A stretch of DNA of 64,000 nt from Patescibacteria group bacterium (GTDB taxonomy: Bacteria > Patescibacteriota > Minisyncoccia > Minisyncoccales > JAHCRE01). A model generated the notes under the pieces. It was not told where the DNA came from, did not search any database, and saw only the letters and a program-made list of their open reading frames with translations. The stretch spans positions 71,257 to 135,256 of the forward strand of contig JAHCRF010000001.1 of assembly GCA_020148055.1 (NCBI GenBank). The letters run 5' to 3'. Numbering within the stretch: position 1 is the first letter of the stretch; each line of letters begins with the position of its first letter. The translations under genes and the position numbers were made by a program. Below, in pieces: positions 4,516 to 51,799 of the stretch.

Positions 4516-6711
4516 TTATTCTAAATGGATTCTTTCTCGAAACTTCTCTACTCTTCCCCTTAATAAGGGATATTTTTTTAATTCAGGGTCCTCTTCTAAA
4601 ATTTCTTTAGCCGCCTTTCTAGTTTTCTCAACTAAGAATATATCTTTCAAAGCTGACATTGCTAAATCAGGAATTCCCCATTGTCTTTGACCAAAAAAAT
4701 CACCAGGGCCTCGAATTCCCAAATCTTTTTCAGCTAACTCAAAACCATTTTCAGAAGAAATCAAAGCTTTCAATCGTTGATGAGTTTTCTTAGCTGGAGA
4801 GTCAGTGAATAAAAAGCAAAAAGATTGATATTTTGATCTTCCTACTCTTCCCCGAAATTGATGGAGCTGCGCTAGCCCAAATCTTTCTGCTCCCTCAATC
4901 ATCATTACCGTGGCATTAGGAACATCGATCCCCACTTCAATTACTGAGGTTGAGACTAAAATGTCAATCTTTTTACCCCTTCCGGTTTGTGCAGAAAAAT
5001 GTTTCATTATCTTCTCTTTTTCTTTTGTAGTCATTTTCCCGTGTAACATTCCAACTTTTAAATCAGGGAAAACAATTTTTGATAGTTTTTGATATTCTTC
5101 TTTTACTGCCCTTACCTCAGCCCAGCTTGAAATTTCTTTTTCTATTTTTTCCTTATCACTAGGTTCAATCCTTGGGCAAATAACAAAAACCTGTCTTCCT
5201 TTTTTAACAACAGAGCGTATAAAATTATAAGCAGCCTTACGATTTCCCGGGGCAATCACCTTAGTGACGATTTTTTTCCTTCCCTTCGGCAATTCATTAA
5301 TTAAAGAAAGATCAAGATCACCGTAAATAGTAAGAGCCAAAGTCCTTGGAATTGGGGTAGCGGTCATTGATAATAAATGGGGAATTATTCTTGTTGCTTG
5401 CCCGCCTGCCGGCGAGGCTGGTTGCTGGTTGCTAGTTGCTAACTTTGCCCTTTGTTCCACTCCAAACCGATGCTGCTCATCCAGGATAACCAGAGCCAAT
5501 TTTCCAAAGCGCACTTTTTCTTGAATTAAGGCGTGAGTACCAATTAAAAGATCAATCTCTTCTTTTTTTAATTTTTCTAAAAGTTTTTCTCGAGAAATTT
5601 TGATAACTTTATTTTTTCTGTCGCCGAAAGCGACTCCCCGGAGGGTTGCTCTTTTAGAAAAAATTCTATTTTCTTTCCCGGTTAAAAGACCAATATTTAA
5701 ATTAAATTTTTTTAAAAGTTTTGAAATCTCCTGAAAATGTTGCTTAGCTAGGATTTCAGTTGGAGCCATAAAAGCCACTTGGAAACCTTGTTTTATTACA
5801 TTTAAAGCAGCTAATACAGCCACCACTGTTTTCCCTGAACCAACATCGCCTTCTAAAAGTCTGTTCATCGGTCTTGGTTTTTCGAGGTCTTTTAGAATCT
5901 GCCAGGCTGATTTTTTTTGGGCATTAGTTAATTTGAAAGGTAAGCTTTTAACAAAATTCTTAATTAACTGGGGATGAAAAGGGATTGGAATTGCTCTTTC
6001 TTTTGAGATTTTTAATTTCTCTCTTAAAACAAAAAGAGAAATAAAAAAAAGCTCCTCAAAAGAAAATCTTTTCTGAGCCTTTTTGGCTAAGGTTAAGGAA
6101 TCTGGGAAATGAATCTGCCAGATAGCTCTTTGGATTGGCAAAATTCGAGAATCTCTAATTACTTTTCCTGGTAGGGGTTCGCGAATTTTCTTTTTAAACT
6201 CAACCAAAAGGGGTCTTAGAATAAATCTTAACCATCTTGAAGACAATCCTTCAGTTTCGGGATAAACAGGGACAATTCTTCCGGTATGAATTAGACTTGT
6301 AGTTTGACTGATTTTCTCATGAGCTGGATTTGATAGATAAAGTCCTTTGTCTCCGAGAGTTATTTTTCCAGCTAAACATAAATTATCTCCTGATTTTAAA
6401 ACTTTTATTAAATAAGGTTGGTTAAACCAGATTACCTTTATTGCTCCTGATTTGTCTTTGACTATTGCCTGGGTTAAAATCATTCTTTTTTTCCAGGTTC
6501 TGATGTTTTCAATTTCTAGAATTTTTACCTTAATACAACAGGTTTCATTAAGTTTTACTTGAGATATCGGAATTATATTTGAAAAATCCTCATAGCGATG
6601 AGGAAAATGATAGAGAAGATCCCTGATTGTCTTTATTCCCAATTTCTTCAACCTCTTTTGGTAGCTGAGACCTACTCGAGGCAGACTCTCAATTGGAGTA
6701 GAAAGATTCAT
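4516..6711 (-). CDS. recG: ATP-dependent DNA helicase RecG
   Basis: Start moved to ATG 6711 (MNLSTPIESLPRVG), below the tRNA. Has DVGSGKT Walker A, LDEQHRFG, MTATPIPRTL and QFRGRVGRS. Contains inserts B and E. Confidence 0.9.
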   Translation of the reverse strand: MNLSTPIESLPRVGLSYQKRLKKLGIKTIRDLLYHFPHRYEDFSNIIPISQVKLNETCCIKVKILEIENIRTWKKRMILTQAIVKDKSGAIKVIWFNQPYLIKVLKSGDNLCLAGKITLGDKGLYLSNPAHEKISQTTSLIHTGRIVPVYPETEGLSSRWLRFILRPLLVEFKKKIREPLPGKVIRDSRILPIQRAIWQIHFPDSLTLAKKAQKRFSFEELFFISLFVLREKLKISKERAIPIPFHPQLIKNFVKSLPFKLTNAQKKSAWQILKDLEKPRPMNRLLEGDVGSGKTVVAVLAALNVIKQGFQVAFMAPTEILAKQHFQEISKLLKKFNLNIGLLTGKENRIFSKRATLRGVAFGDRKNKVIKISREKLLEKLKKEEIDLLIGTHALIQEKVRFGKLALVILDEQHRFGVEQRAKLATSNQQPASPAGGQATRIIPHLLSMTATPIPRTLALTIYGDLDLSLINELPKGRKKIVTKVIAPGNRKAAYNFIRSVVKKGRQVFVICPRIEPSDKEKIEKEISSWAEVRAVKEEYQKLSKIVFPDLKVGMLHGKMTTKEKEKIMKHFSAQTGRGKKIDILVSTSVIEVGIDVPNATVMMIEGAERFGLAQLHQFRGRVGRSKYQSFCFLFTDSPAKKTHQRLKALISSENGFELAEKDLGIRGPGDFFGQRQWGIPDLAMSALKDIFLVEKTRKAAKEILEEDPELKKYPLLRGRVEKFRERIHLE
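5383..5439 (-). repeat. element family B, copy 1 (gcaacNN heptamers + GC hairpin), in frame in recG
   Basis: Sense strand gcaactagcaaccagcaaccagcctcgccggcaggcgggcaagcaacaagaataatt is about 90% identical to 50750-50807. Encodes ATSNQQPASPAGGQATR. Confidence 0.9.
5620..5649 (+). repeat. element family E, copy 1 (gtcgccgaaagcgactcc hairpin), in frame in recG
   Basis: The gtcgc/gcgac stem with its flank resembles 48138-48156 (gtcgccgtaaggcgactcc). Encodes ..TLRGVAFGDRK... Confidence 0.7.
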
Positions 6712-6722
6712 AAGAATTGTGA

Positions 6723-6794
6723 TGCCCTCGAGAGGAGTCGAACCTCTATTTGAAGCTCCGCAAGCTCCTGTTTTATCCATTAAACTACGAGGGC
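6723..6794 (-). tRNA. tRNA-Arg (anticodon GCG)
   Basis: Hand fold: acceptor gccctcg/cgagggc, anticodon stem ggagc/gcttc, loop uuGCGga, T-loop ttcgact. No CCA encoded. Confidence 0.75.
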
Positions 6795-6870
6795 AAGCTT
6801 TTTAAATTTAACATAAATTTTTCTTTACTTCAAGTTGACTTAATTAATTTTATCCATTAAAATTAAAAGA

Positions 6871-7084: not shown

Positions 7085-7115
7085 ATTCCTAATTCTGGAT
7101 TCATAATTCTTAATT
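7081..7115. repeat. five-heptamer half-element (ttttatt cctaatt ctggatt cataatt cttaatt)
   Basis: Direct reading. Same unit family as the right arm at 37476-37510. Abuts the terminator hairpin. Confidence 0.7.
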
Positions 7116-7119
7116 TTAA

Positions 7120-7842
7120 TTATTCTCTTGCTACTACTACCCCCTGGATTTCTTTAGCTCCTGATTTTTTTAAAACTCGAGCAGCCTCTTCCATAGTCGC
7201 CCCACTTGTATAAATATCATCAACTAATAAAATTCTCTTCTCAAAAATCTTATTTTGGTTCTGGCAAGAAAATGTTTCTTTAACATTTTCTTTTCTTTCC
7301 CTTTCTGAAAGTTTGACCTGAGGTAAAGTTTCTTTTATTTTTATCAAGCAATTTAAAACTAAAGGAATCTCTAAAATTTTTGAAAGTTCTTTACTAATCT
7401 CAGTTGTCTGGTTAAATCCTCGCCATCTTAACCTCTTTTCATTTAGAGGAATAGGGATTAAAATAAAGTTGGAGAAATTTGGTTTGTTGTTAAGTAATTG
7501 AAAATGAGTTATTATTAAAGAAGCTAAAGGTTTTGCCAGCTCTTTTATAAAAGGATTATATTTAAATTTCTGGATTAATTCTTTTATCAATGGATTTTGG
7601 TAGGAGAGAGCAAAATAGAGAGTACTGAGAATTTTTGGTTGACATTCAGGACACTTCTCTCCTTCTAGTAATCTTTTTGGCTTCTTGCAAAGGCAATATT
7701 GATATTGAGAAATTTCCAGGATAGATTGACAATCTTCACAAAGATAGCTTCCCCCCCGGCCGCAACTAAAACAAGATCTAGGGAAAAGGATATCTAATAA
7801 AAATTTTTTAATTTTTTCCATCATATTTACAGTTCTTTCCAA
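7120..7842 (-). CDS. comF: ComF-family competence protein / phosphoribosyltransferase-fold
   Basis: N-terminal Cys-rich zinc ribbons (CFSCG...CEDC, CPEC) and a C-terminal PRTase motif LLVDDIYTSGATM. Confidence 0.75.
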   Translation of the reverse strand: MERTVNMMEKIKKFLLDILFPRSCFSCGRGGSYLCEDCQSILEISQYQYCLCKKPKRLLEGEKCPECQPKILSTLYFALSYQNPLIKELIQKFKYNPFIKELAKPLASLIITHFQLLNNKPNFSNFILIPIPLNEKRLRWRGFNQTTEISKELSKILEIPLVLNCLIKIKETLPQVKLSERERKENVKETFSCQNQNKIFEKRILLVDDIYTSGATMEEAARVLKKSGAKEIQGVVVARE

Positions 7843-7899: not shown

Positions 7900-9015
7900 A
7901 TGGTCCGATTTCCTTTTAAAATAGGTCTTAAGAGTTGCCTAGGGATAGATATTGGGACTTCCGGGATAAAAATTGTTCAATTATCACTCCAAAGAGAAAG
8001 AATAAAATTAGAAAAATATGGTGAGGCAACTGCTCGAATTTTTTATGAGAAACCTTTCAGAACTTTTGAGAAAAGTACCCTTTTACTATCTAATCAAGAT
8101 ATCGCTCGGGCAATTTTAGCTATTTGTAAAGAGGCAAAAATTTCTGAAAGGAAAGCCATTTTTGCAATCCCTGATTTTTCAAGTTTTTTTACCAGTTTTA
8201 ATCTACCGGCAATGACCAGAGAAGAGGTTTCTCAGGCAGTCAGATTTGAAGCTCGTCATCATATTCCCTTACCCTTAGCTGAAGTGAGTTTAGATTGGTC
8301 AATAATTGAAGGAGAATTAAGTGATCGAAAAAAAGTTCCTCTAAAGATCCTATTGGCGGCTGTACCTAACAATGTTATTAATCAATATCGCCAAATAGTT
8401 GTTTTGTCAAATCTTGAACTTAAGGCTTTAGAAGCTGAAGTATTTGGGCTATTAAGATCTTTGATTGGAGATGATAAGAGAGTGATTATCTTGTTAGATA
8501 TTGGAGCTCAAAGCACAAGCTGCAATATTATTGATCAGGGAATTTTAAAAGTCAGTCATAGTTTTGATGTAGCTGGAAATGAATTAACTCAAGTTTTAGC
8601 CAAGGCATTAAATGTTGATTATTTAACAGCGGAAAATTTAAAAAAAATTCATGGCCTAAAATTTTTGGTTTCCGGTGTACCTCCTATTGAAAAGAATCAA
8701 GAGATTCCCTTAATGACCAAGAAGGTTGGAGAGATTTTAAGACCTTTAATTGACCTAATTTTAACTGAAACAAAAAAGACTTCCCGAAGTTTTTATCAAA
8801 CTAAAGGGAAAAAAGTTCAAAAAGTGATTATTGCCGGCGGTTCGGCCTTACTCCCTGGTCTTAAAGAATATTTTTTCAAATCCCTTAAACAAGAAGTAGA
8901 GATTGCCAATCCTTTTTCTGACATTTTATATTCTCCAATTCTTGAAGAGACTTTGAAAAAAATGGGACCCTCTTATGCCATAGCCGTAGGTATGGCCCTG
9001 AGGGGACTCGAATAA
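7900..9015 (+). CDS. pilM: type IV pilus assembly protein PilM (actin-like ATPase fold)
   Basis: GIDIGTSGIKIVQL, DIGAQST and IIAGGSALLPGL motifs. First gene of the pilMNO order. Confidence 0.85.
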   Translation: MVRFPFKIGLKSCLGIDIGTSGIKIVQLSLQRERIKLEKYGEATARIFYEKPFRTFEKSTLLLSNQDIARAILAICKEAKISERKAIFAIPDFSSFFTSFNLPAMTREEVSQAVRFEARHHIPLPLAEVSLDWSIIEGELSDRKKVPLKILLAAVPNNVINQYRQIVVLSNLELKALEAEVFGLLRSLIGDDKRVIILLDIGAQSTSCNIIDQGILKVSHSFDVAGNELTQVLAKALNVDYLTAENLKKIHGLKFLVSGVPPIEKNQEIPLMTKKVGEILRPLIDLILTETKKTSRSFYQTKGKKVQKVIIAGGSALLPGLKEYFFKSLKQEVEIANPFSDILYSPILEETLKKMGPSYAIAVGMALRGLE

Positions 9016-9016
9016 A

Positions 9017-9544
9017 ATGGCAATAGAAATTATTCCAAAAAAAGTAGTTGGACCTTCCCCTTGGCAAAATACCTTGCTTTATTTTTTCATTTCTTTACTT
9101 TTGGTTTCCATTTTGGGTTACTTTGCCTTAGATTATTTTGTCAAAGAAGCTGATCGGACTCTTCTGGAGTTGAAAGAGGAGTTAATTGAAGCAAGATCTC
9201 CTCAACAAGTTGCCTTGGAAAAAGAAATTTCGGATTATCGAGAAAAAATCGAAGATTTCTCTTCTTTACTTGCTAGCCACCAAAAGAGTTCAAATTTTTT
9301 TGATTTCCTTGAGGAAATTACCCATCCTAAGGTTTTCTTTTCTGAGCTAAATTTGGATACTAAAGGAAATCGAGTTAGACTTTATGGTCAGGCTGATAGT
9401 TTTCAGACCCTGGGCCAACAATTGCTGATTTTTCAAAACTCTGAATTTATTCGGAATTTAAGTTTACCAGAAATTAGAATTAGAGAAGAGGGAAAAATCG
9501 GATTCATTTTTGATTTTTCTCTTAATCAAGAATTGTTTCAATAA
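9017..9544 (+). CDS. pilN: PilN-like pilus assembly protein (single N-terminal TM)
   Basis: 175 aa, one TM then a coiled coil. Called on position after pilM. Confidence 0.6.
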   Translation: MAIEIIPKKVVGPSPWQNTLLYFFISLLLVSILGYFALDYFVKEADRTLLELKEELIEARSPQQVALEKEISDYREKIEDFSSLLASHQKSSNFFDFLEEITHPKVFFSELNLDTKGNRVRLYGQADSFQTLGQQLLIFQNSEFIRNLSLPEIRIREEGKIGFIFDFSLNQELFQ

Positions 9545-9547
9545 ATT

Positions 9548-10105
9548 ATGTCTCGATTAACTTTAATTATTATTTGTTTTTTCCTCATTTTATTAATAGG
9601 CCTTTTCTTAATCTGGCCAAAATATCAAAACTTGGGAGCTCTTAAACTTGAAATTGAAGGAAAGGAAATTGAATTACAATACTTGGAAGAATATTTTCAA
9701 AGGCTCGATCAGCTTTCCCAAGAGCTTAAAAAATATGAGGCTCAACTTTCAAAGATTGATTTTGCCCTTCCCTCTGATTCTTCTTTAACTTTGCTTTCTT
9801 TAATAAATTTCCTTCAAAAAGCGAGCTCCCAAAATGGTTTAGTTTTTAAAGAATTGGGATCGTTTTCAATAATCTTACCGAAACCACCAGCCGAAGCTTC
9901 TGGTCTTCAGGAATCTCAACTTTCTTCTAAAATCAAAGAGATCTATCTTGGCTTTGAAGTTGCTGGTTCTTATTCTGCTTTGAAAAATTTCCTTAATACC
10001 TTGGAAAAAAGTGCCAAACTTATCGAAGTAGAAGAGGTTTCTTTTTCTTTTGAAGAGGAGGAGATTTTTTCTTTTATTTTTAAAATAAAAACTCATTCTT
10101 ATTAA
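9548..10105 (+). CDS. pilO: PilO-like pilus assembly protein
   Basis: 185 aa, N-terminal TM plus coiled coil. Called on position after pilN. Confidence 0.6.
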   Translation: MSRLTLIIICFFLILLIGLFLIWPKYQNLGALKLEIEGKEIELQYLEEYFQRLDQLSQELKKYEAQLSKIDFALPSDSSLTLLSLINFLQKASSQNGLVFKELGSFSIILPKPPAEASGLQESQLSSKIKEIYLGFEVAGSYSALKNFLNTLEKSAKLIEVEEVSFSFEEEEIFSFIFKIKTHSY

Positions 10106-10111
10106 AGATCT

Positions 10112-10378
10112 ATGGCTGTTACTTTTATTGAATCAAGAAAAAGGCAGAAATATCTAATTTTTATCTTAGTTGTGGTGATTTTTGGAATTGCTTTCCTAAT
10201 CTGGAATTATTTTTCAGCAAAACCAAAGCTTCCCTTCTTTAAACCTCTGCCGCCACCTGAAATAAAAATAAATTTTGAAATATTAAAAAGTCCAACTTTG
10301 GACGAACTTCAGTTATTTGAAGAGATTTTACCCTTTGAAGAGGAAATTGGTCGAGAAAATCCCTTTACTCCCTATTAG
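10112..10378 (+). CDS. small single-TM protein of the pilus locus (function unknown)
   Basis: 88 aa ORF packed tightly between pilO and pilB. One hydrophobic helix (YLIFILVVVIFGIAFLIW). Confidence 0.5.
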   Translation: MAVTFIESRKRQKYLIFILVVVIFGIAFLIWNYFSAKPKLPFFKPLPPPEIKINFEILKSPTLDELQLFEEILPFEEEIGRENPFTPY

Positions 10379-10432
10379 GTCTTGAGAAAAATCTTCATCT
10401 AATATCTATTACCTAATATCTAAATTTAGATT

Positions 10433-12160
10433 ATGACGTTAGTTCGCCAATTGATTCAAAAAAAGATCTTAAATAAAGAAAAAGCCACTTCTCTAGAATT
10501 TGAAATTAAAAGCTCGGGAAGAAAAGAGGAAGAGGTGATTTTAGAGAAAAAAATAGTTTCTGAAAGTTTTTTATTTAAGTTAAAGAGCGAAAATCTTAAA
10601 ATACCTTTGAAAGAAGTTCTTCCTGAAGATGTAATTTTCAAGGTTTTGGAGCGCATTCCTGAGGAATCAGCCAAGTATTACAAGATGATACCAATCCGTC
10701 AAAGAGACGATCTGTTGGAAGTCGGAATGGTCTATCCAGAGGATTTAAAAGCTCAAGAAGCTCTCAAATTCTTAACTCGTCAGGAAAAATTGTCTTATGA
10801 AGTCTTTTTGATTACCCCTACTACTTTTAATAATCTCTTGAAGAAATACCGAACTTTGAAAAAAGAAGTCACTAAGGCTTTAGAGGAGTTAGAAGAAGAA
10901 ATAAAGGTAGAGAAAGTTAAAGCTAGGCCTTTGGCTCCTGCTGAATTCGAAAGATTGGTTGAAGAGGCTCCAATTTCTAAAGTAGTGGCCGTGATGTTGA
11001 GGCACGCAGTAGAAGGAGATGCTTCTGATATTCATATCGAACCAACCAGAGATAAATTAAAAGTTCGATTCCGGTTAGATGGAGTTTTACATTCTTCTCT
11101 CCTCTTACCTATTAGAATCCATCAAGCTGTGGTAGCCAGAGTTAAAATTCTATCTAATCTTAAGATTGATGAAATGAGAGTGCCTCAAGACGGTAGATTT
11201 TCGACTAGAATAGATGGTCAAGACATTGATTTCCGGGTTTCCACTTTTCCGACTACCGAAGGAGAAAAAGTGGCAATCAGAGTTTTAGACCCTTCAAAAG
11301 GAATGTTGAGCTTGGAAGAATTGGGGATGGTTGGTAGAAATCTCGAGGTGATAAAGGAAGCGATAAAAAAACCCTATGGGATGATTTTAGCTACTGGTCC
11401 CACCGGGACAGGGAAAACCACTACCTTGTACGCTATTTTAAAAATTTTAAATCAGGAAGGAGTAAATATTGTTGCTTTAGAAGATCCGGTTGAATATTAT
11501 ATTGGAGGGATTAATCAGTCCCAGATGAGACCGGATATCGGTTATACTTTTGCCACCGGTTTGCGGCATGTTGTCAGACAGGATCCTGATATCATTATGG
11601 TTGGAGAGATTCGAGATGAGGAAACAGCTTCCTTAGCTACCCATGCTGCCTTAACTGGCCATGTTGTTTTATCTACCTTGCATACTACCAATGCCTTAGG
11701 AACAATCCCTCGACTTATTGATTTAGGAATTCAACCTTATTTAATTCCCCCCACTATAAGTATCTCTTTAGCCCAGAGATTGGTTAGGAGATTGTGTCCA
11801 GAATGTAAAAAGAAAGTCAAACCAAAATTAAAAATCAGAGATTTAATTTTGAAAGAAACTGAAGCTCTTTCTCTAACAGCTAAAAAAGATCTTAAGATCT
11901 CGAAAAGCTTCTCAATTTTTGAGCCTAAGGGTTGTAAAAAATGTCGTTTTGAAGGTTATTCTGGTCGAATTGGGCTTTTTGAAGTTTTAGTAATGACCGA
12001 TGAACTTTCTGAGCTAATCTTGAAGGAACCTTCAGAAGTTAAGATTGCTGAGGAGGCCGAAAACCAGGGAATGATTACAATGAAACAAGACGGTATTTTA
12101 AAAGTTTTAGATGGCATCACTTCAATTGAAGAAGTTTTGAGAGTGGCTGAGGAGAAATAA
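10433..12160 (+). CDS. pilB: type IV pilus assembly (extension) ATPase PilB/GspE family
   Basis: N-terminal GSPII-type domain, Walker A GPTGTGKTTT, Asp/His boxes and a tetracysteine CPEC...CKKC. Confidence 0.9.
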   Translation: MTLVRQLIQKKILNKEKATSLEFEIKSSGRKEEEVILEKKIVSESFLFKLKSENLKIPLKEVLPEDVIFKVLERIPEESAKYYKMIPIRQRDDLLEVGMVYPEDLKAQEALKFLTRQEKLSYEVFLITPTTFNNLLKKYRTLKKEVTKALEELEEEIKVEKVKARPLAPAEFERLVEEAPISKVVAVMLRHAVEGDASDIHIEPTRDKLKVRFRLDGVLHSSLLLPIRIHQAVVARVKILSNLKIDEMRVPQDGRFSTRIDGQDIDFRVSTFPTTEGEKVAIRVLDPSKGMLSLEELGMVGRNLEVIKEAIKKPYGMILATGPTGTGKTTTLYAILKILNQEGVNIVALEDPVEYYIGGINQSQMRPDIGYTFATGLRHVVRQDPDIIMVGEIRDEETASLATHAALTGHVVLSTLHTTNALGTIPRLIDLGIQPYLIPPTISISLAQRLVRRLCPECKKKVKPKLKIRDLILKETEALSLTAKKDLKISKSFSIFEPKGCKKCRFEGYSGRIGLFEVLVMTDELSELILKEPSEVKIAEEAENQGMITMKQDGILKVLDGITSIEEVLRVAEEK

Positions 12161-12166
12161 AATTAT

Positions 12167-12532
12167 ATGAGGTCAATTTTATTGGTTGAGGACGATCCTT
12201 TTATCATTGATATTTATACTACTAAATTGAAAGAGGCCGGATTTTTTATTGAGATAGCCGAAGATGGTGAAGAGGCCTTGAAAAAAATAAGAGAAAAAAA
12301 ACCCGACCTTTTAGTTTTAGATATTGTTCTGCCTAACATTGATGGATGGGAACTTCTTAAGAGAGTTAGAACCGAATTAGGTTGCGAAGATTTAAAAGTA
12401 GTTGTTTTTTCCAATCTCAGCCAAAAGGCAGACGTTGAAAAAAGTTTGGAATTTGGAGTAATAAAATATTTCATTAAAGCGGATTTTACTCCAAGTGAAG
12501 TGGTTGAAGAAATAAAGAAAATACTAAAATAA
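12167..12532 (+). CDS. stand-alone response-regulator receiver (CheY-like)
   Basis: 121 aa. Has the LLVEDD acidic pocket, phospho-acceptor context LLVLDIVLP, and S..K later. Confidence 0.85.
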   Translation: MRSILLVEDDPFIIDIYTTKLKEAGFFIEIAEDGEEALKKIREKKPDLLVLDIVLPNIDGWELLKRVRTELGCEDLKVVVFSNLSQKADVEKSLEFGVIKYFIKADFTPSEVVEEIKKILK

Positions 12533-12540
12533 TTTTAATT

Positions 12541-13608
12541 ATGGACTATTCTTCTCAACTTAGAGAATTATTGAATTTTACCATCCAAGAGAAAGCCTCT
12601 GATTTACATATTTCAGTTGGTCATCCTCCAGTTTTAAGGATAAGTGGTCGACTTATCCCCTTAATTAAATTCAAAAAAATTACTTCCGGAGACTCTCAGG
12701 GGTTAGCTTTTGAATTAATGACAGAGGAACAAAGAGAAAGATTTCTTCAGAAAAAAGAAATCGATTTTTCTTATAATTTTGAAGGAAGGGCAAGATTTAG
12801 AATCAATATTTTTTTTGCAAGTGGAAATATTTCCTCTGCTCTTCGTCTCATTCCAGCCAAAATTCCAACCATTGAAGAATTGAATCTTCCTCCAATTTTG
12901 CATCAATTTACCAAGCCTTCTCAGGGATTTGTTTTAGTTACTGGTCCCTCATCTCATGGAAAATCAACGACTCTAGCGGCTCTACTTGATGAGGTAAATC
13001 ATACCAGAAACGATCATATAATCACTATTGAGGATCCAATTGAATATGTTTTTGAGGACGATCGTTGTATTATTGACCAAAGGGAAGTTTATCAAGATAC
13101 AATCTCTTTTGCCCAAGCCCTAAGATCAACTTTCCGCCAAGACCCTGACGTAATTATGGTGGGAGAAATGAGAGATTTAGAAACCATGGCCACCGCTATT
13201 TCTGCTGCTGAAACCGGGCACTTGGTCTTCGCTACTTTACACACCAATTCAGCCTCCCAGAGTATCCATCGAATTGTTGATTCTTTTCCTCCTTTACAGC
13301 AAAGTCAAGTTAGAGCCCAATTATCAGGCTCTCTTTTAGGAGTAATTTCCCAGAGATTAATTCCTAGAATTAAAGGAGGCTTGATCCCTACTTGTGAAAT
13401 AATGATTAATACCTCGGCTGTGGCTAATTTAATTCGGGAAAACAAAATTCATGAATTACCCTTGGTTATTGAAACCTCAGCTGAAATCGGAATGGCTTCT
13501 TTAAATCGGTCTTTAGCCAATCTGGTTAGAGCAAAAGAAATTTCTTTAGAAAACGCCTTACTTTATTCTCTTAATCCAGTTGAACTAAAAAAACTTCTTA
13601 GATATTAA
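12541..13608 (+). CDS. pilT: twitching-motility (retraction) ATPase PilT
   Basis: 355 aa. Has Walker A GPSSHGKSTT, MVGEMRD and TGHLVFATLHT. Confidence 0.9.
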   Translation: MDYSSQLRELLNFTIQEKASDLHISVGHPPVLRISGRLIPLIKFKKITSGDSQGLAFELMTEEQRERFLQKKEIDFSYNFEGRARFRINIFFASGNISSALRLIPAKIPTIEELNLPPILHQFTKPSQGFVLVTGPSSHGKSTTLAALLDEVNHTRNDHIITIEDPIEYVFEDDRCIIDQREVYQDTISFAQALRSTFRQDPDVIMVGEMRDLETMATAISAAETGHLVFATLHTNSASQSIHRIVDSFPPLQQSQVRAQLSGSLLGVISQRLIPRIKGGLIPTCEIMINTSAVANLIRENKIHELPLVIETSAEIGMASLNRSLANLVRAKEISLENALLYSLNPVELKKLLRY

Positions 13609-13614
13609 AATAAA

Positions 13615-14826
13615 ATGAGATTTAATTATCAGGCCAGAACTAAAGCCGGTTCGCTTCAAAGCGGAACAGTTGAATCCTCTTCCCGAGAGGCAGCTTTAAC
13701 TCTTTTGGAAAAATATGGACTTTATGTCACTTCTTTAGAAAGGGCAGAAGTAATGCCAGTTTTTTTTAGAAAAATAAAGCTTTTCCAGAGAATCTCTAGT
13801 GGGGAGATAGTCAGTTTTTCAAGGCAATTGGCCATTATGTTTAAATCGAGAATTCCAATAGTGGAGATTTTTTATACTCTAGCCAAACAGACTAAAAATC
13901 CAAGTTTTAAAGAAAAAATTATTAAAATTGCTGAAGATGTAGAAGGGGGAGGTCCTCTTTCTTCTACCCTAGCTAAGCATCCGAGAATTTTTAGTCAATT
14001 CTATATCAGTATGGTCAAATCTGGCGAAGTTTCTGGAGAACTTTCAGAAGTTTTAGATTATTTAGCTGACCATTTGGAAAGGGAAAGGGATTTCCGTTCA
14101 AAAATGATTGGCGCAATGATTTATCCCGTCTTAGTTTTAATAGTTGTCTTAGTCGTAATTGTGGCAATGACCCTTTTTGTTATTCCCAAATTAGGTGACA
14201 TGATAAAAGAAATGGAGATGGAGACTCCTTTTATAACTGATCTTGTTTTAGGTTTTTCTGATCTTTTAAGAAAATGGGGAATATTTTTTATTGTTGGTGT
14301 TTTTATCTTAATGTTTGCCTTTTCCCGGTTCTTCAAGACCAAGCAGGGGAAAATAATTTTTGATAAATTTTCTTTGAAATTCCCTATAATTGGCGGTTTT
14401 TTACAAAAGCTTTATCTTACTCGTTTTGCCGAAAATTTGTCAACCTTAATTTCAGGAGGCTTGCCAATTGCCCGGGCTTTAGAAATCACCGCTGACATAG
14501 TTGGAAACGATGTTTACAAAAGCATCATTTTAACAGCTCGAGACGGGGTGAGAAGAGGAGAAACAATATCTTCTATTTTAGAAAAGTATCCTGAAGATGT
14601 CCCTCCTTTATTTACCCAGATGACCTTAGTTGGAGAGAGGGCTGGTCAAATAAGTCCAGCCCTAATGAATATCGTTGGTTTTTATCGAAAGGACGTTGAA
14701 AGAACTCTTGATAACTTTGTCAGTTTTCTTGAGCCACTTTTACTTATATTTTTAGGAGTAGTAGTTGCCGGATTAGTAGCCAGTGTTTTAATGCCAATCT
14801 ATCAGGTTGCCTTAGGAGGAATATAG
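13615..14826 (+). CDS. pilC: type IV pilus platform protein PilC (GspF family)
   Basis: 403 aa polytopic protein with duplicated T2SS-F-type domains. Confidence 0.85.
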   Translation: MRFNYQARTKAGSLQSGTVESSSREAALTLLEKYGLYVTSLERAEVMPVFFRKIKLFQRISSGEIVSFSRQLAIMFKSRIPIVEIFYTLAKQTKNPSFKEKIIKIAEDVEGGGPLSSTLAKHPRIFSQFYISMVKSGEVSGELSEVLDYLADHLERERDFRSKMIGAMIYPVLVLIVVLVVIVAMTLFVIPKLGDMIKEMEMETPFITDLVLGFSDLLRKWGIFFIVGVFILMFAFSRFFKTKQGKIIFDKFSLKFPIIGGFLQKLYLTRFAENLSTLISGGLPIARALEITADIVGNDVYKSIILTARDGVRRGETISSILEKYPEDVPPLFTQMTLVGERAGQISPALMNIVGFYRKDVERTLDNFVSFLEPLLLIFLGVVVAGLVASVLMPIYQVALGGI

Positions 14827-14856
14827 AAGTTTTCCACAGTTCGACTTATAAAGATT

Positions 14857-14865
14857 TGTTATAAT
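14857..14865 (+). promoter_or_regulatory. extended -10 (TGtTATAAT) upstream of the major pilin gene
   Basis: Motif read directly. No good -35 was seen. Confidence 0.35.
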
Positions 14866-14894
14866 AAAAATTGAGCCCTTCTAATGGAACTGAA

Positions 14895-14933
14895 TAAAAA
14901 ATCAAAAGGTCGAAAATCAAAAATTTCAAAAAT
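14895..14933. repeat. degenerate 'tcaaaag/tcgaaaa' word array in the pilin leader
   Basis: aatcaaaaggtcgaaaatcaaaaatttcaaaaa resembles the reverse complement of the valS array (701-735). Confidence 0.6.
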
Positions 14934-14951
14934 TAATGACTAATAATTAAA

Positions 14952-15449
14952 ATGGAAATTATGGTTAAGAAAAAAGGTTTTACCTTAATCGAGCTTCTAG
15001 TGGTAATTGCCATCATTGGAATTTTAGCTTCGATTGTTTTGGTCTCTTTAGGTGGAGCAAGGGCAAAAGCGAGAGATGCCAGGATTACAGGAGCTATGTC
15101 TCAGATTCGAACCAAGGCTGAATTGGTTAATGCAGCAGAAAATGCTTACACTCTTTTGGCCTGTGGTTATGATACTGAAATGACATCCCTTTGTAATGAC
15201 ATCGATAAACAGTGTCCTAGTGGAACATCAGGATGTGGAGCAGATGATGCAGACGGAGGAACTGAGGATGTAACAATTCAAGCGAGTGCTGATAAATACT
15301 GTGCCCATACCCCGCTGAATGTTCAATACGGTGGAGCTAACGATTACTATTGTGCAGATAGCACAGGAAGAGCCGGTAATACTACTACTGCACCCGGTGT
15401 CGCACCTTATTGCATTGCCCCAACTTACGTCTGTCCTGCTGTAAGATAG
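14952..15449 (+). CDS. type IV major pilin (Cys-rich C-terminal domain)
   Basis: Class III signal KKGFTLIELLVVIAIIGILA. C-terminal YC..TPLN..YYCADSTGRAG..YC...CP. Confidence 0.85.
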   Translation: MEIMVKKKGFTLIELLVVIAIIGILASIVLVSLGGARAKARDARITGAMSQIRTKAELVNAAENAYTLLACGYDTEMTSLCNDIDKQCPSGTSGCGADDADGGTEDVTIQASADKYCAHTPLNVQYGGANDYYCADSTGRAGNTTTAPGVAPYCIAPTYVCPAVR

Positions 15450-15541
15450 TTAATAATTGAAAAGCTTCTATTTGGTTTGATAATCCAAATGTGTTAGGGA
15501 CTCTGAAATTAAAGAGTATCAGAGTTATTTGATTTGAAATA

Positions 15542-16012
15542 ATGTTATTTTTCCTTAAGAAATCTAGAGGTTTTATTTTATTTAAAGATCAAAAATTTTC
15601 GGATGGTTTTACTTTGGTTGAACTCTTGGTAGTTATTGCTATTATCGGACTTTTAGCTTCGGTTGCTTCAGTTATTGCAATGGAGGCTCGAAAGCGAGGT
15701 AGAGATACAGGTATTCAGGCTAGTTTAGCCCAAGCAAGATTCGAAGCCGCCTTGATCCATAATAGCGATAAGTCTTATGTTGCTCTCTGTGATGCTAGTG
15801 ATACTCTTAATGATGCTAATGATAATCTCCGTATAATCGAGGATGGAGTTAGAAAATATGCCGGTGTTGACCCGATTTGTTATGCTGCTAAAGATACTTA
15901 TTGTGTTCAGTCTCCGTTAAATATAGGTGGTTATTATTGTTTAGACTCAACTGGATTTGCCGGGAAAATAACTGATTCCACTTATTGTCCAGCAAATACT
16001 CGTTGCCCCTGA
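15542..16012 (+). CDS. type IV pilin paralog with an unusually long leader peptide
   Basis: ...FSDG|FTLVELLVVIAIIGLLA about 22 aa from the start. Shares the YC.QSPLN..YYCLDSTGFAG..YC...CP tail with 14952-15449. Confidence 0.8.
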   Translation: MLFFLKKSRGFILFKDQKFSDGFTLVELLVVIAIIGLLASVASVIAMEARKRGRDTGIQASLAQARFEAALIHNSDKSYVALCDASDTLNDANDNLRIIEDGVRKYAGVDPICYAAKDTYCVQSPLNIGGYYCLDSTGFAGKITDSTYCPANTRCP

Positions 16013-16092
16013 TAAAAAGGTCAAATCTATTTTTTGTGGCGTAATAAAAAAATTTAATAAGATTGAGATAAATCCCGATGGATTTTTAAATT

Positions 16093-16123
16093 TGCTCCGG
16101 GCTTCGGCCGGGCAGATTTTTTT
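16093..16123 (+). terminator. probable intrinsic terminator after the pilin genes
   Basis: Imperfect GC hairpin gctccgggcttcggccgggcag followed by T7. Confidence 0.55.
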
Positions 16124-16161
16124 GTATTTCGATTTACTAACAGATTAGCTATAATAAAAAA

Positions 16162-16962
16162 ATGGAGTTGGTTTCCTTTTTCTCTCTTTTTATTTTCCTT
16201 TTTGGATTAGCAGTAGGTAGTTTTTTAAATTCAATAATTCACCGCTTACATACCGGCGAAAGTTTTCTATTTACTCATTCCTATTGTCCTCATTGTAAGC
16301 ACAAATTAAGCTGGCAAGATTTAATTCCTATTTTGAGTTTTCTAATTTTAAAAGGAAAATGCCGATATTGTAAAAAAAAGGTGTCCTTGCAATATCCCTT
16401 GGTTGAGTCAGCAACTGGAATTTTATTTATTTTAACTACCCATTACACACTACTTACTATAAGCTACGAAAGTTTACTGTTTACTGTTTACTGTTTACTG
16501 TTAAGTTGTTTCTTAATAATAATTTTCGTTTACGATTTAAAACACTATATTATTCCGGATAAAATAATTTATCCTGCAATAGGCATTGCCTTTATCTATA
16601 ATATTCTTTATTCATACTTCATAATTCATAATTCCTATTTCCTTGTAAATAGTTTATTAGCAGCCTTTACTGGAGGCCTCTCTTTTCTTTTTATTTTTCT
16701 CCTTTCGGGTGGCAAATGGATGGGTTTTGGTGATGTTAAGTTAGTTTTCTTTATGGGTCTTTTTTTGAGTTTTCCAGATATTTTGGTTGCTCTGTTTTTA
16801 GCCTTTTTAGTTGGTGCTATAATAGGGATAGGGTTGATTTCGGCTGGTAAAAAAACTCTTAAGAGTGAAGTTCCTTTTGGCCCTTTTCTGGTGACAGGAG
16901 CCTTTATCGCTTTCTGTTTCGGAAATCAAATAGTAAATTGGTATTTAAAAATTTTAAGATGA
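16162..16962 (+). CDS. pilD: prepilin peptidase PilD (A24 family) with N-terminal Cys4 domain
   Basis: CPHC...CRYC, multiple TMs and the GFGDVKL catalytic Asp context. TATAAT lies 6 nt upstream of the ATG. Carries two heptamer arrays. Confidence 0.85.
   Translation: MELVSFFSLFIFLFGLAVGSFLNSIIHRLHTGESFLFTHSYCPHCKHKLSWQDLIPILSFLILKGKCRYCKKKVSLQYPLVESATGILFILTTHYTLLTISYESLLFTVYCLLLSCFLIIIFVYDLKHYIIPDKIIYPAIGIAFIYNILYSYFIIHNSYFLVNSLLAAFTGGLSFLFIFLLSGGKWMGFGDVKLVFFMGLFLSFPDILVALFLAFLVGAIIGIGLISAGKKTLKSEVPFGPFLVTGAFIAFCFGNQIVNWYLKILR
16472..16506. repeat. five-heptamer array (gtttact x4 + gttaagt) inside pilD
   Basis: Direct reading. Encodes ..LLFTVYCLLLSC... Confidence 0.8.
16607..16641. repeat. 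five-heptamer array (tttattc atacttc ataattc ataattc ctatttc) inside pilD
   Basis: Contains the 18-mer attcatacttcataattc, which is identical to part of the rpoB-rpoC spacer arm (30522-30556). Confidence 0.8.
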
Positions 16963-17516: not shown

Positions 17517-17568
17517 AAAAAGCTAACATCTAATTGTTAATAGATCAATTAACAATCAATAATCAACA

Positions 17569-18090: not shown

Positions 18091-18095
18091 TAACA

Positions 18096-30480: not shown

Positions 30481-30556
30481 ATTATGAATTAGGAATCAAG
30501 AATAAAAAATAAGAAATAAAAATTCATAATTCATACTTCATAATTCGTAATTCTGA
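30476..30556. repeat. composite palindrome in the rpoB-rpoC spacer: 5x7 'NNNgaat' array, 11-nt core, 5x7 'attcNNN' array
   Basis: cctgaat tatgaat taggaat caagaat aaaaaat / attcata attcata cttcata attcgta attctga. The left arm overlaps the rpoB stop codon. Confidence 0.8.
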
Positions 30557-37401: not shown

Positions 37402-37510
37402 GAATCACGAATCACGAATTATGAATTATGAATAGAATAAAAACGGTAATTCAAAAACTGCCCCCAAGGGCAGTTTTTTATTCTTGATTCCTAATTCCTT
37501 ATTCTATTTA
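37402..37510. repeat. composite palindrome: 5x7 array (gaatcac gaatcac gaattat gaattat gaataga), terminator core, inverted 5x7 array (ttttatt cttgatt cctaatt ccttatt ctattta)
   Basis: Direct reading. Lies between convergent recA and rpsR. The right arm overlaps the rpsR stop. Confidence 0.8.
37453..37479. terminator. bidirectional intrinsic terminator core (aaaaa-ctgccc-ccaa-gggcag-tttttt)
   Basis: 6-bp GC stem, 4-nt loop, flanking A-run and T-run. Confidence 0.8.
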
Positions 37511-48803: not shown

Positions 48804-48864
48804 CCAGATTTGTTAGATAGAGGGTTTGTTGAAATTCTTTGAAATTTTGGGTATAATAACTTTT

Positions 48865-49698
48865 ATGAAAGAAAAAGTTATTAAAATCCGTGGAGCCAAA
48901 GTTCACAATTTAAAAAATATTAATCTTGATATCCCAAAAAACAAACTGGTAGTGATTACTGGGATTTCAGGTTCAGGAAAATCATCTTTGGCCTTTGATA
49001 CATTATATGCTGAAGGACAAAGAAGATATGTTGAGAGTTTATCTGCTTATGCAAGGCAATTTTTAGGAGTGATGGATAAACCAGAGGTTGACAAAATTGA
49101 AGGAATTTCACCTGCAATTTCAATTGACCAAAGAAAAGCAGCTCACAATCCACGCTCCACTGTTGGAACCATTACTGAAATTGCAGATTACTTAAGATTA
49201 TTATTCGCTAGGATAGGGAAGCCCCATTGTCCAAAATGTAAAAAAACAGTTAGCCGTCAGACCATCGATCAAATTACTGATCAGGTTTTGAAATTGCCAA
49301 AAAGAACAGAAATTTCGATTTTGGGTCCAGTTGTTAGAGGTCGAAAAGGAGAGCATCGGGGAATTTTAGAAGAGATTCAAAGATCAGGATTTATCCGAGT
49401 GAGAATTGATGGGATTTTACACCGAATTGAAGACTACAACCCACCCACCATGTCCTCCCACTCGCTTCGCGAGCGGGCCCCTACTCTAGGGCTGAAGTTA
49501 GACCGAAAGAAAAAACACAATATTGAGGTTGTTGTTGATAGATTAATAATTGATAAAGACTTGGATAGATCAAGGTTGGTTGATTCTCTGGAAACAGGCC
49601 TAAAGTTGGGAAAAGGAATAGTAATAGTAACTCAAAAAGCTTCCCCAGCCCCACCCGCCACCCATCAAAGGAAAAAAACATCTAAGGCAAAAATCTAA
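48865..49698 (+). CDS. uvrA: excinuclease ABC subunit A, N-terminal fragment; the frame ends at TAA inside or just after repeat element C
   Basis: [47 protein letters not shown]... TATAAT (48852-48857) lies 7 nt upstream of the ATG. Confidence 0.85.
49435..49492 (+). repeat. GC-rich insert D in uvrA (hairpin cccactcgc-ttc-gcgagcggg at 49457-49477)
   Basis: GC island encoding ..[19 protein letters not shown].. between conserved RIDG and [13 protein letters not shown]. Shares gcgggcccct with the reverse complement of element A copy 1. Confidence 0.65.
49629..49693 (+). repeat. element family C, copy 2; coincides with the frame break in uvrA
   Basis: Identical over 65 nt to 31037-31101. Confidence 0.95.
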
Positions 49699-51799
49699 TG
49701 ACTTAATATTCAGCGAGTATTTTGCCTGCGAGGAATGTGGGATTTCTCTTCCAGAATTAGAGCCTCGGCTTTTTTCATTTAATTCTCCTTATGGGGCCTG
49801 TTCAGCCTGCCAGGGGCTTGGAGAAAAATTAGAAATCGATCCAAAATCAGTTTTACCCAATCCAAATTTATCGATTTCTGAAGGAGCAATTTTTCCCTGG
49901 GCTCATGCCTCTCATAAAGTTGGCAGGCAGGGTTATTTTTGGTGGCAGTTCACCCACTTGGCAGAAAAGTATAACTTCTCCTTAGATGTCCCGGTTAAAG
50001 AACTTCCCAAAAAGATCATTGATTTAATTTTATATGGTAATGGCCAATTTGAGGGAGTAGTTCCCAATTTGGAAAGGAGATATCACGAAACTGATTCAGA
50101 ATATACCCGTAAGGAAATTGAGCAGTATATGATAAAAAAGAGATGTGAAAAATGTCAGGGAAAAAGATTAAGGCCTGAAGCCTTGGCAGTGACTGTGATA
50201 AAAAAATCAATAAATGAAATCGTTGAAATTTCAATAGAAAAAGAAAAAAGATTTTTCGAGAATTTACTACTAAATCCTAAATCCTATAACCTAAATCCTA
50301 ATGACTACAAAATTGCCCAACCAATTGTTAAGGAAATCATTAAGCGATTACAATTTCTAATTGATGTTGGTTTAGATTATTTAACCTTAGATCGGAAGAC
50401 AGAAACTTTATCGGCTGGGGAAGAGCAGAGAATAAGATTGGCTACTCAGTTAGGTTCTCAATTAACCGGAGTTTTATACATTTTGGATGAACCTTCAATT
50501 GGTCTTCATGCTAGAGATCAGGGTAGGCTCATCGAAACCTTAAATAAGTTAAGGGATTTGGGCAATACCGTTATTGTTGTTGAACATGATCCTCAGACAA
50601 TCATGGCTGCTGACTGGGTGATCGATATAGGGCCAGGAGCGGGGAAACACGGTGGCAAAATTATATTTAAGGGAACACCAAAAGAATTACTGAGATCAAA
50701 GACACTTACTGGAGATTATTTAGCTGGAAGAAAGAAAGTTGAGATAAAAGCAACCAGCAACAAGCAACCTGCCTCGCCGACAGGCGGGCAAGCAACCAAG
50801 AATAATTATCTAATAATAAAGAAAGCGGCTGAGCACAATCTCAAAAATATTGATGTTAAAATTCCTTTGGGAAAATTTGTCTGCATTACTGGAGTTTCGG
50901 GTTCGGGCAAAAGTTCTCTAATGAATGATATTTTAGCTAAAGCCCTGATGAGGAAATTTTACAAAGCCAAAGAGGAACCGGGAGAATTTAAAGAATTAAT
51001 TGGAACAGAATTTTTGGATAAAGTGGTTTTAGTGGATCAGTCTCCAATTGGCCGAACCCCCAGATCAAATCCGGCAACTTATACCGGAGTTTTTTCTTAT
51101 ATCAGAGATCTTTTTTCAAAAACCAGAGAGGCCAGAATTAGGGGGTATCGGCCAGGACGTTTCAGTTTTAATGTTAAGGGAGGAAGATGTGAAGTATGTC
51201 AAGGTCAGGGTCAAATCAAAATCGAGATGTACTTTTTGCCTGATATTTATATTGAGTGCCAGGAATGTAAGGGGAAAAGGTTCAACAAAGAAACCTTGGC
51301 TATTGAATATAAAGGAAAGAATATTGCTGAGGTTTTAGAAATGACAGTTGAAGAAGCCCTAAAATTTTTCATAAATATTCCCGGTATCTATCATAAATTA
51401 AAAACTTTGTATGATGTTGGTTTAGGCTATATTCAATTGGGCCAGCCAGCCCCTTCTTTGTCTGGAGGGGAGGCCCAGAGAGTGAAATTAGCTACTGAAC
51501 TTTCTAAAAGGGCTACGGGAAAGACTTTATATATTTTAGATGAACCAACCACTGGTTTGCATCCCGATGATATTAAAAAATTAGTTTGGGTTTTGAGAAA
51601 TCTGGTAGATAAAGGAAATACGGTTTTATTAACTGAACATAACATCGATATCATCCGCAATTCAGATTGGATAATAGATTTAGGACCGGAAGGTGGAGAT
51701 GAAGGCGGCGATATTATTGCAATAGGTACTCCATTTGAAATTACAAAAAACAAAAAAAGTTATACCGGACACTATTTAAAACAAGTTTTTAAATCTTGA
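49631..51799 (+). CDS. uvrA: excinuclease ABC subunit A, remainder of the gene in the +1 frame (open from 49631; UvrA homology resumes about 49700)
   Basis: [41 protein letters not shown]... and a second ABC module, [10 protein letters not shown]...[12 protein letters not shown]...[12 protein letters not shown]. The track only lists it from 49958. Confidence 0.85.
50271..50305. repeat. five-heptamer array (taaatcc taaatcc tataacc taaatcc taatgac) inside uvrA
   Basis: Direct reading. Encodes ..[15 protein letters not shown]... Confidence 0.85.
50750..50807 (+). repeat. element family B, copy 2, in frame in uvrA
   Basis: gcaaccagcaacaagcaacctgcctcgccgacaggcgggcaagcaaccaagaataatt. Encodes [17 protein letters not shown]. 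Confidence 0.9.

Follow-up and report, generated by a model that had tools for sequence, protein, structure and literature searches.

A 21-nt hairpin unit within the heptamer linkers of recG and uvrA from a member of the Patescibacteria

The recG and uvrA genes of a Patescibacteria group bacterium share a stretch of 57-58 nucleotides (nt), which raises the question whether one element was inserted into both genes and where such an element would begin and end. Both genes are located in a piece of 64,000 nt (contig JAHCRF010000001.1 of assembly GCA_020148055.1, positions 71,257 to 135,256), which is called the window in the following. The GC content of the window is 35%, and the closest named relatives of the genome are Nealsonbacteria and Minisyncoccales. 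A previous sequence-only reading had treated the entire shared stretch, named element B, as a single insert. Comparison with orthologous genes leads to a different answer. Element B is probably a composite of an older heptamer linker and a 21-nt non-autonomous hairpin, which was inserted 5' of the pentanucleotide CAAGC without target duplication.

The shared stretch of recG and uvrA and its parts

Both copies of element B are present as described earlier. On the sense strand of recG (5439 to 5383, minus strand) the sequence is GCAACTAGCAACCAGCAACCAGCCTCGCCGGCAGGCGGGCAAGCAACAAGAATAATT, and in uvrA (50750-50807, plus strand) it is GCAACCAGCAACAAGCAACCTGCCTCGCCGACAGGCGGGCAAGCAACCAAGAATAATT. They differ by four mismatches and one 1-nt indel over 58 columns, which corresponds to about 91% identity and agrees with the previous figure of about 90%. 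No inverted repeat in the window is longer than this pair. Beyond either end the similarity stops abruptly, and the flanks in the window are unrelated. A core of 26 nt gives exactly two matches in the window, versus none in 100 dinucleotide-preserving shuffles. The features of both loci are given below; numbers starting with L and P denote related loci and proteins.

4516..6711 (-): recG host gene, assigned to the NCBIfam RecG equivalog NF008168 with 833 bits
5422..5439 (-): recG heptamer array GCAACTA GCAACCA GCAA(CCA), encoding ATSNQQ; older linker, shared with L012 and L015, which lack the hairpin
5401..5421 (-): 21-nt hairpin unit in recG, CCAGCCTCGCCGGCAGGCGGG, encoding PASPAGG, RecG residues 431-437 counted from M24
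5396..5400 (-): CAAGC 3' of the recG unit, on the target side and outside the insert; present at the empty recG site of L015
5383..5395 (-): recG tail (GC)AACAA GAATAAT T, encoding (A)TRI-I; the sequence is identical in L012 and L015, both without hairpin
48826..51799 (+): uvrA host gene, with NCBIfam UvrA (NF001503) matches on both of its open reading frames (ORFs)
50750..50767 (+): uvrA heptamer array GCAACCA GCAACAA GCAA(CCT), encoding ATSNKQ
50768..50788 (+): 21-nt hairpin unit in uvrA, CCTGCCTCGCCGACAGGCGGG, encoding PASPTGG; exact core match
50789..50793 (+): CAAGC adjoining the uvrA unit
50794..50807 (+): uvrA tail AACCAAGAATAATT, encoding (A)TKNN(Y); host linker leading into a conserved 14-residue stretch

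The longest recG ORF (4516-6780) overlaps a tRNA-Arg(gcg) gene at 6721-6795 on the same strand, and the start of RecG is therefore probably M24 (MNLSTPIE). RecG is a 100% match to a database protein of 731 amino acids (P0001).

Both copies are indeed read in the same frame, as ATSNQQPASPAGGQAT in RecG and as a 16-residue counterpart in UvrA. The 1-nt indel in front of AAGAATAATT is real as well. However, the change of the tail frame that was deduced from it merely marks the point where the two host linkers cease to resemble each other. Tandem Repeats Finder (TRF) reports arrays of period 7 at 5417-5440 (recG) and 50749-50769 (uvrA), so that the proposed co-occurrence of GC hairpins and heptamer arrays is borne out.

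The discrete insert comprises exactly 21 nt, CC(T/A)GCCTCGCCG(G/A)CAGGCGGG, and encodes PASPAGG. It is predicted to fold into a GC stem of 7-8 bp that contains a single bulged T and closes on a loop of 4 nt, (T)GCC.T.CGCC-GNCA-GGCG.GGC(A). The variable loop base is G, the canonical form, in the recG copy and A in the uvrA copy of the window. In eight of eight canonical copies the unit is directly followed by CAAGC, and both together represent the 26 conserved nt. The copies are nearly invariant and offer too little variation for covariation; the family was searched by approximate matching of each arm. If the hairpin is translated, the tryptic peptide LATSNQQPASPAGGQATR is expected across it.

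The mapping onto protein structures that had been proposed with the sequence-only reading places the inserts in loop or linker regions. In alignments with the solved structures 9wm0 and 1gm5 the extra residues of RecG correspond to gaps between helicase motifs II and III. Those of UvrA align to gaps versus 2r6f, 3ux8 and 9gxk, in the linker which joins the two ABC halves and just before the second 'L.V.GA.EHNLKN'. An AlphaFold2 model of RecG (mean pLDDT 74) shows residues 431-438 (PASPAGGQ) as a coil that separates a helix from the motif-III strand, at pLDDT values below 50. A further GC-rich insert of recG (residues 355-366) likewise forms a low-confidence loop in this model. Element B does contain a discrete, repeated in-frame insert, which lies in variable parts of RecG and UvrA.

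Filled and empty sites and dispersal of the unit

The comparison with orthologues lacking the insert, also proposed earlier, delimits a discrete unit of 21 nt. For RecG the linker between DEQHRFG and TATPIPR was compared in the 120 closest proteins, among which PASPAGGQA occurs solely in the sequence from the window. The closest relative (P0002, 89% identity) reads KLATSNKQQKTRIIPHLLSM; both 'ATSN.QQ' and 'TRII' are present and only seven residues are absent. With exact 21-nt boundaries the unit is absent from the orthologous recG genes of L012 (89% amino acid identity), L015 and L014. The empty site of L012 reads GCGACAAGCAACAAGCAA/CAAAAAACAAGAATAATT, with the junction AAGCAA/CAAAAAACAAGAATAATT, and that of the outgroup L015 (76% identity) ...AAACAA/CAAGCAACAAGAATAATT, compared to ...CAGCAA/CCAGCCTCGCCGGCAGGCGGG/CAAGCAACAAGAATAATT at the filled site of the window. 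The 21 nt are situated immediately 5' of a pre-existing CAAGC, and nothing is duplicated. Because L012 and L015 carry heptamers and tail without the hairpin, these parts represent the older recG linker.

The heptamers and the AAGAATAATT tail are found in orthologues without hairpin, which contradicts a single insert of 57-58 nt. The sequence IPHLLSM following the recG tail is invariant across the 120 RecG sequences, and the motif N/Q-Y/F-L in front of IIK.A.EHNLK is conserved across the UvrA relatives. The tail codons RI-IPHLLSM (RecG) and N-NYL (UvrA) are host codons which are kept in relatives. The idea that the 57 nt form the element and that the relatives lost the hairpin was rejected, since the outgroups L015, P0005 and P0008 keep the linker without hairpin and the 21-nt unit has other flanks elsewhere. 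A target-site duplication, suspected from the GCAAC repeats beside the hairpin, was also rejected, because the empty sites possess an equal number of heptamers. In more distant relatives the RecG site contains the remnants GSGGQAKL, RPASPKLQRGEGSGGQAKL and RGSRQAGK.

The pattern (A/V)TS.QQP(A/T)T..YL is already found in UvrA orthologues that lack the hairpin, and hairpin-less relatives show VTSSQQPATSHYL or ATSNQQPTTSNKRNYL. The hairpin is also missing in the uvrA gene of L017, which contains only the heptamers GTAACCA GTAGTCA GCAACCA GCAACCA. In L016, uvrA has the 21-nt unit at the position it occupies in the window, and a further 30 nt are nested in its hairpin loop. The nested piece is no second copy of the unit and was found in none of the other loci retrieved. 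The unit can apparently itself become an insertion site.

The related genome GCA_020148025.1 contains the unit in uvrA (L016) and lacks it in recG (L012). Its nucleotide identity to the window is 87% for recG and 83.5% for uvrA. As the uvrA copy is shared with L016 of this relative (about 84% nucleotide identity), it is older than the split of both genomes, while the recG copy was gained after the split. The window genome (scaffold_298) and the relative of about 85% nucleotide identity (scaffold_571) derive from one and the same metagenome (L013, L019; ENA ERZ23498930, SAMN13740702). The hairpin-bearing and hairpin-less recG alleles belong therefore to co-occurring sister species.

A second filled/empty pair was found in the gene of leucyl-tRNA synthetase (LeuRS). 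The protein of L001 reads ...TYNL[PASPAGG]QAKKLLKKWL, compared to ...TYKL/QAKKLLRKWL in the closest relative (78% identity). The filled site of L001 is ...CCTACAACCTACAACCTG/CCTGCCTCGCCGGCAGGCGGG/CAAGCTAAAAAG, and the empty sites are ...CTTACAAGCTA/CAAGCCAAGAAG (L020) and ...GACCT/AAAAGCT (L021). The junction repeats that of recG, with 21 nt placed 5' of a CAAGC already present (L020) and within a heptamer linker, which consists of ACAAGCT ACAAGCC in L020, of CTAAAAG repeats in L021 and of CCTACAA repeats in L001. No target duplication is seen at either pair (recG, LeuRS). That two independent filled/empty pairs from unrelated genes and lineages have the same boundaries is the main argument for regarding the 21-mer as a discrete inserted repeat.

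To follow its dispersal the hairpin core was scanned in one genome per species and in JGI metagenomes. Matches of low or mid GC content are L001, L002, L005, L006, L008 and L009, which are four representative genomes and two metagenome contigs. All six extend to the 26-mer cctGCCTCGCCG[G/A]CAGGCGGGCAAGC, whereas their flanks are unrelated. The 26-mer occurs in at least five other low-GC genomes, which are mostly Patescibacteria by record label. High-GC matches have C or T in the loop, lack CCT, show no further similarity and are found in about the number expected by chance according to our own estimate. Four copies are encoded within genes, namely a LeuRS (L001), a GT2 (L002) and a GT1/GT4 (L008) glycosyltransferase and a hypothetical protein (L006), all in frame and on the sense strand; the copies in L005 and L009 are intergenic. 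The gene-borne copies outside the window read as ASPAGGQA or LPRRQAGK. Altogether, six of the eight copies are intragenic and occur singly, and all six have sense orientation, with two reading frames represented. When 240 RecG and UvrA proteins of relatives were scanned for the six translations of the core, 12 sense-frame fragments and none of the others were detected.

In the seven copies displayed (L009 was left out, being near the end of its locus) the unit stands in 7-nt register between heptamer-like units. The heptamers themselves vary, with GCAACNN flanking the unit in recG and uvrA, CCTACAA in L001, CCAAATT in L009 and GTCTTGN in L005. The empty sites are likewise heptamer arrays.

Possible origins and comparison to known elements

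The linker part of element B is a pre-existing, fast-evolving tract of low complexity, made of tandem heptamers (GCAACNN...GAATAAT) in a permissive loop of RecG and in the linker between the halves of UvrA. The resemblance of recG and uvrA over 57-58 nt results from one unit being located in two similar GCAACNN linkers. We favour the explanation that this unit is a non-autonomous selfish repeat. It would be translated through as seven extra residues (PASPAGG, or LPRRQAG in the frame of the LPRRQAGK type) in a disordered loop, and it would persist as nearly neutral wherever seven flexible residues do no harm. In such a gene-dense genome the surviving insertions would be those in frame in permissive loops. 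Copying may occur in trans by a machinery recognizing the bulged hairpin and the adjacent pentanucleotide. The other strand reads GCTTG^hairpin, which would resemble the target rule of single-strand HUH/Y1 transposases (IS200/IS605) and the conserved tetranucleotide adjacent to the hairpins of repetitive extragenic palindromic (REP) sequences. Template switching between heptamer arrays, guided by microhomology, might be an alternative route.

Several points weigh against this explanation. A mobilizing enzyme was not found in the window, whose ten unannotated ORFs are all housekeeping genes. The 64 kb examined contain only two copies. In public collections the exact core is seldom encountered (four low-to-mid-GC representative genomes and two metagenome contigs), and it was not found in viral contigs, plasmids or phages. 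The taxon labels of metagenome-assembled genomes (MAGs) are unreliable, as illustrated by L001, titled Saccharibacteria although its LeuRS bears the name Vogelbacteria. With six of six copies the orientation sample is small and could also reflect selection on the peptide or on heptamer orientation. The identity across lineages could partly reflect selection on function and not recent spread. Finally, given how similar the flanks of the two genes are, recG may have gained its unit immediately by homologous copying between these two loci.

This last point leads to ectopic gene conversion as the sole explanation, in which the hairpin arose once in uvrA and was copied to recG by homologous recombination between the GCAACNN linkers, without any mobile element. 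The hairpin flanks are nearly identical in both genes and predate the recG hairpin, and the uvrA copy is older than the recG copy. A hint of concerted evolution comes from the first heptamer, which contains GCAAC in recG and uvrA of the window alike and GCGAC in those of the relative. However, the two copies of the window differ in the loop base, and the distances between arrays within a genome (3-4 of 21 nt) are by manual count no smaller than those between orthologues (4 of 21). The identical unit is also present in LeuRS, two glycosyltransferases, a hypothetical gene and intergenic DNA elsewhere, in each case with non-homologous flanks. Similarity running into the host sequence had been named in the sequence-only reading as a sign of conversion or of an artefact. 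It applies to the approximately 36 of 57 nt that are host linker, but not to the 21-nt unit, which has different flanks at other loci. Conversion is a possible route for the recG/uvrA pair, yet it leaves the family unexplained, and we regard it as unlikely to be the only process. An artefact of assembly or sequencing, or an adaptor chimera, is the least probable of all explanations. The only other retrieved record of the genome (L019) is the same assembly, with 100% identity over 21.8 kb, but several unrelated projects and pipelines (NCBI MAGs, JGI metagenomes) have yielded assemblies that contain the unit, and a Logan assembly supplies the empty LeuRS site. In addition, it is always in frame, the orthologous uvrA copy of L016 has its own substitutions and a nested insert, and there were no vector, plasmid or phage matches. 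The presence of the unit in unrelated genes with different flanks rules out both pure conversion and artefact as the whole story.

The unit could alternatively be a selected cis-acting motif of mRNA or DNA, acting for example in ribosome pausing at a domain boundary, in mRNA stability or processing, or in protein binding. Such a role would fit to the 26 nt that are identical across distant lineages, to the single difference in 26 positions between the uvrA copies of the window and L016 at a gene-wide identity of 83.5%, and to the sense orientation of all intragenic copies in inter-domain linkers. It is less easily reconciled with the presence and absence of the unit at the same site among close relatives, with linkers which carry quite different hairpins, none at all or decayed remnants (GSGGQAKL, RGSRQAGK), and with functionally unrelated host genes. 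Folding z-scores are modest (-1.6 to -2.4), and there is no Rfam match even at E <= 10. We consider this explanation improbable. A known RNA family was rejected: at gathering thresholds Rfam detects only tRNAs over the whole window, and at E <= 10 the matches on both element regions are noise. More improbable still is an untranslated intervening sequence, which is excised from the mRNA or bypassed by the ribosome. Translational bypass elements may contain stops, and their length is not tied to multiples of three. In contrast, every gene-borne copy or variant found here (21, 30, 33 or 48 nt) is a multiple of three, free of stops and located in an insertion-tolerant loop, as would be expected from selection on a translated sequence and needless if it were skipped. 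Pointing in the other direction are the GC-rich hairpins in an AT-rich genome, the 65-nt repeat D11 of the same uvrA gene, which does break the frame (see below), and the proposed derivation of mitochondrial bypass elements from GC clusters (PMC4464245).

An origin from a phage, plasmid or vector was rejected, as no copy was present in the viral contigs, plasmids or phages searched; the plasmid search gave one match with E = 0.3 in a high-GC plasmid. The GC skew follows the gene strand, and with no origin or terminus visible in 64 kb it is uninformative on a replication-strand cause of the orientation.

The selfish hairpin repeat outlined above can be compared to several known systems. The closest functional analogue would be the small dispersed repeats (SDR) of heterocyst-forming cyanobacteria, without membership being claimed. 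These elements, attributed to Elhai et al. in 2008, are reportedly hairpins of 21-27 nt that are embedded in tandem heptamers, can be nested, vary between relatives and are presumed to be mobile. They are said to encode no protein, to move by an unknown mechanism and to fall into the families SDR1-8 in a cyanobacterial subgroup. Judged by this description, the likeness extends to the size of 21 nt, the predicted hairpin, the embedding in heptamers, the presence and absence between relatives and the lack of an encoded protein. Differences are the hosts, which are Patescibacteria and associated lineages and not cyanobacteria, and the sequence, which appears unrelated as judged without alignment to SDR1-8. 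Furthermore, most copies here are in frame inside conserved coding genes, and the adjacent CAAGC is defined for the present unit.

Rickettsia palindromic elements (RPE) are, reportedly following Ogata et al., specific to Rickettsia and not associated with heptamer arrays. They resemble the present unit as palindromic repeats in frame in conserved genes of a reduced, AT-rich genome, where they are tolerated as extra surface peptides. At the sequence level, such an in-frame location at permissive sites also applies to RecG, UvrA, LeuRS and the two glycosyltransferases. At about 105-146 bp (PMC3184786) RPE are however five to seven times larger than the 21 nt found here.

MITEs, or miniature inverted-repeat transposable elements, have terminal inverted repeats and a target-site duplication and are typically longer than 50 bp, in contrast to a 21-nt unit without duplication at either filled/empty pair. 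The present unit shares with REP sequences (for REP/REPIN and single-strand transposition of the IS200/IS605 type see PMC3116915; PMC3184786) an imperfect, bulged GC-rich hairpin of about 20-35 nt, an adjacent short motif (here GCTTG on the opposite strand), the absence of target duplication and strand specificity. REPs, however, are located outside genes, usually occur in very high numbers, frequently form REPIN pairs and are linked to RAYT, none of which is seen here; neither a RAYT nor a Y1/HUH gene was found among the annotated genes or the ten unannotated ORFs of the window.

The GC clusters of yeast mitochondria are GC palindromes of 30-80 bp in an organellar genome, mostly intergenic, and are divided into classes by consensus and into sub-classes by internal indels (PMC4464245). 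They form tandem or nested arrays, their position is rarely conserved between strains, and some are found in rps3/VAR1, where they alter protein size (PMC4464245). They are analogous in being GC palindromes of an AT-rich genome with variants by internal indels and an intragenic case, without implying membership. They differ in being larger, in their sequence and in lacking a heptamer context, and the genome studied here is bacterial. Heptamer arrays are known from Beggiatoaceae, cyanobacteria and Bacteroidetes, where they are mostly intergenic, of one sequence (TAACTGA), patchy and of unknown function (PMC4679880). In both cases tandem 7-nt repeats are the dominant short tandem repeat, but the window contains many different heptamers, often within ORFs as protein linkers. 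No paper on such inserts in Patescibacteria was found in a limited literature search, which is weak evidence of novelty.

A farther-reaching idea would regard the 21-nt hairpin as an active cross-lineage mobile element among the smallest known, with its own target rule of CAAGC and heptamers without duplication and a machinery based on single-strand DNA or RNA. It would colonize coding sequences of essential genes across Patescibacteria and, together with the heptamer arrays, be a main driver of linker evolution in reduced genomes. We put this forward only tentatively and consider it rather doubtful.

Related inserts and other repeats of the window

Small hairpins and heptamer arrays turn over rapidly in this lineage, and element B is one family among them. 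Period 7 accounts for 34 of the 89 TRF rows of the window, and many of these arrays are inside ORFs. GC islands touch period-7 arrays six times versus 2.5 expected under random placement (P = 0.037), which is supportive, if modest. In all syntenic genes compared to two relatives (65-89% identity), indels of at least four codons are mostly GC-rich patches coding for Pro, Ala, Arg and Gly or heptamer arrays, which one genome possesses and the next does not.

A 33-nt hairpin in the uvrA gene of relatives shares the termini of the element B unit (CCTGCCTCG...AGGCGGGC). It is located at 10433-10465 in both L016 and L018 (GCCCGCCTCGACTCGCCGTCTTCGGCGAGGCGGGC in L018) and is absent in the window (around 49297) and in L017. 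Variants with these termini have different interiors and lengths of 21, 33 and 51 nt, and in two variant hairpins the end is likewise GGCGGG with CAAGC after it. The shared termini suggest, at the level of sequence, a hairpin family defined by its ends with variable interiors. According to the junction alignment, a 48-nt insert of heptamers plus hairpin is specific to the window. In the hypervariable uvrA linker the heptamers differ per genome; L018 has four copies of AAATTCC, the heptamer flanking the core in L009.

If the interpretation as inserted repeats is correct, uncultured Patescibacteria carry ultra-small hairpin repeats whose in-frame insertion affects essential and highly conserved genes. 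With two filled/empty pairs and the neighbouring CAAGC, the rule of insertion is specific enough to be tested. The inserts and heptamer arrays account for most of the length variation between orthologues here and thereby affect alignment, phylogenomics, gene calling (as in the split uvrA) and structure prediction. They could also serve as fine-scale strain markers.

Further inserts were observed in both host genes. At 5617-5646 recG contains the GC-rich in-frame insert TLRGVAFGDR, which is absent from the recG gene of L014. At 49435-49482 uvrA contains a heptamer-like run and the hairpin CCCACTCGC-TTCG-CGAGCGGG, in frame and absent from three relatives. The earlier statement that each host frame is kept is right for element B, but uvrA is split further upstream by a different repeat. 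This repeat, D11, comprises 65 nt and occurs at 31037-31101 (rpoC) and 49629-49693 (uvrA), 100% identical and read in the same frame as 21 residues. Its length is no multiple of three, and the uvrA frame shifts right after it (break at 49694-49698, stop at 49696-49698), which splits uvrA into two ORFs; the downstream frame resumes thereafter. In the relatives uvrA is intact, with other heptamer and hairpin content at the D11 linker. The split may represent a pseudogene, an assembly error or recoding.

A type IV pilus cluster is encoded at 7900-18683. It comprises PilM/PilO-like proteins, PilB/PilT ATPases, PilC and several prepilins (GFTLIELLVV), and lies beside ComF-like and CinA genes. As competence-related machinery it could allow DNA exchange between co-occurring lineages.

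GC-rich stretches at 54094-54184 (after groEL) and 63226-63338 (near the end of the window) are located outside or at the edge of ORFs and may be structured RNAs or terminators; they have no Rfam match at gathering thresholds. The structured, GC-rich repeat D9 of about 95 nt is found at 28025-28118 and 1451-1561, with copies of 85% identity. The rpoB copy is on the sense strand and in frame (KGPTKVGGRSGREAFPRNGRPRPWVGWSPK), between the heptamers AAAATCC and AAAAGCC AAAACTA; its predicted RNA fold has -49.6 kcal/mol (z = -2.4), and it has no Rfam match. The second copy is antisense to tsaD and read through as a C-terminal tail. GAATNNN heptamer arrays are present at 2689-2780, 7085-7121, 16610-16634, 30464-30553, 37398-37433 and 48325-48401, mostly between genes. 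They are often followed by an inverted array (ATTCNNN), which results in long AT-rich inverted repeats. One GAATNNN array (48363-48407) forms an in-frame insert within uvrC (FWESRVRNQESRTKK), which the relatives do not have.

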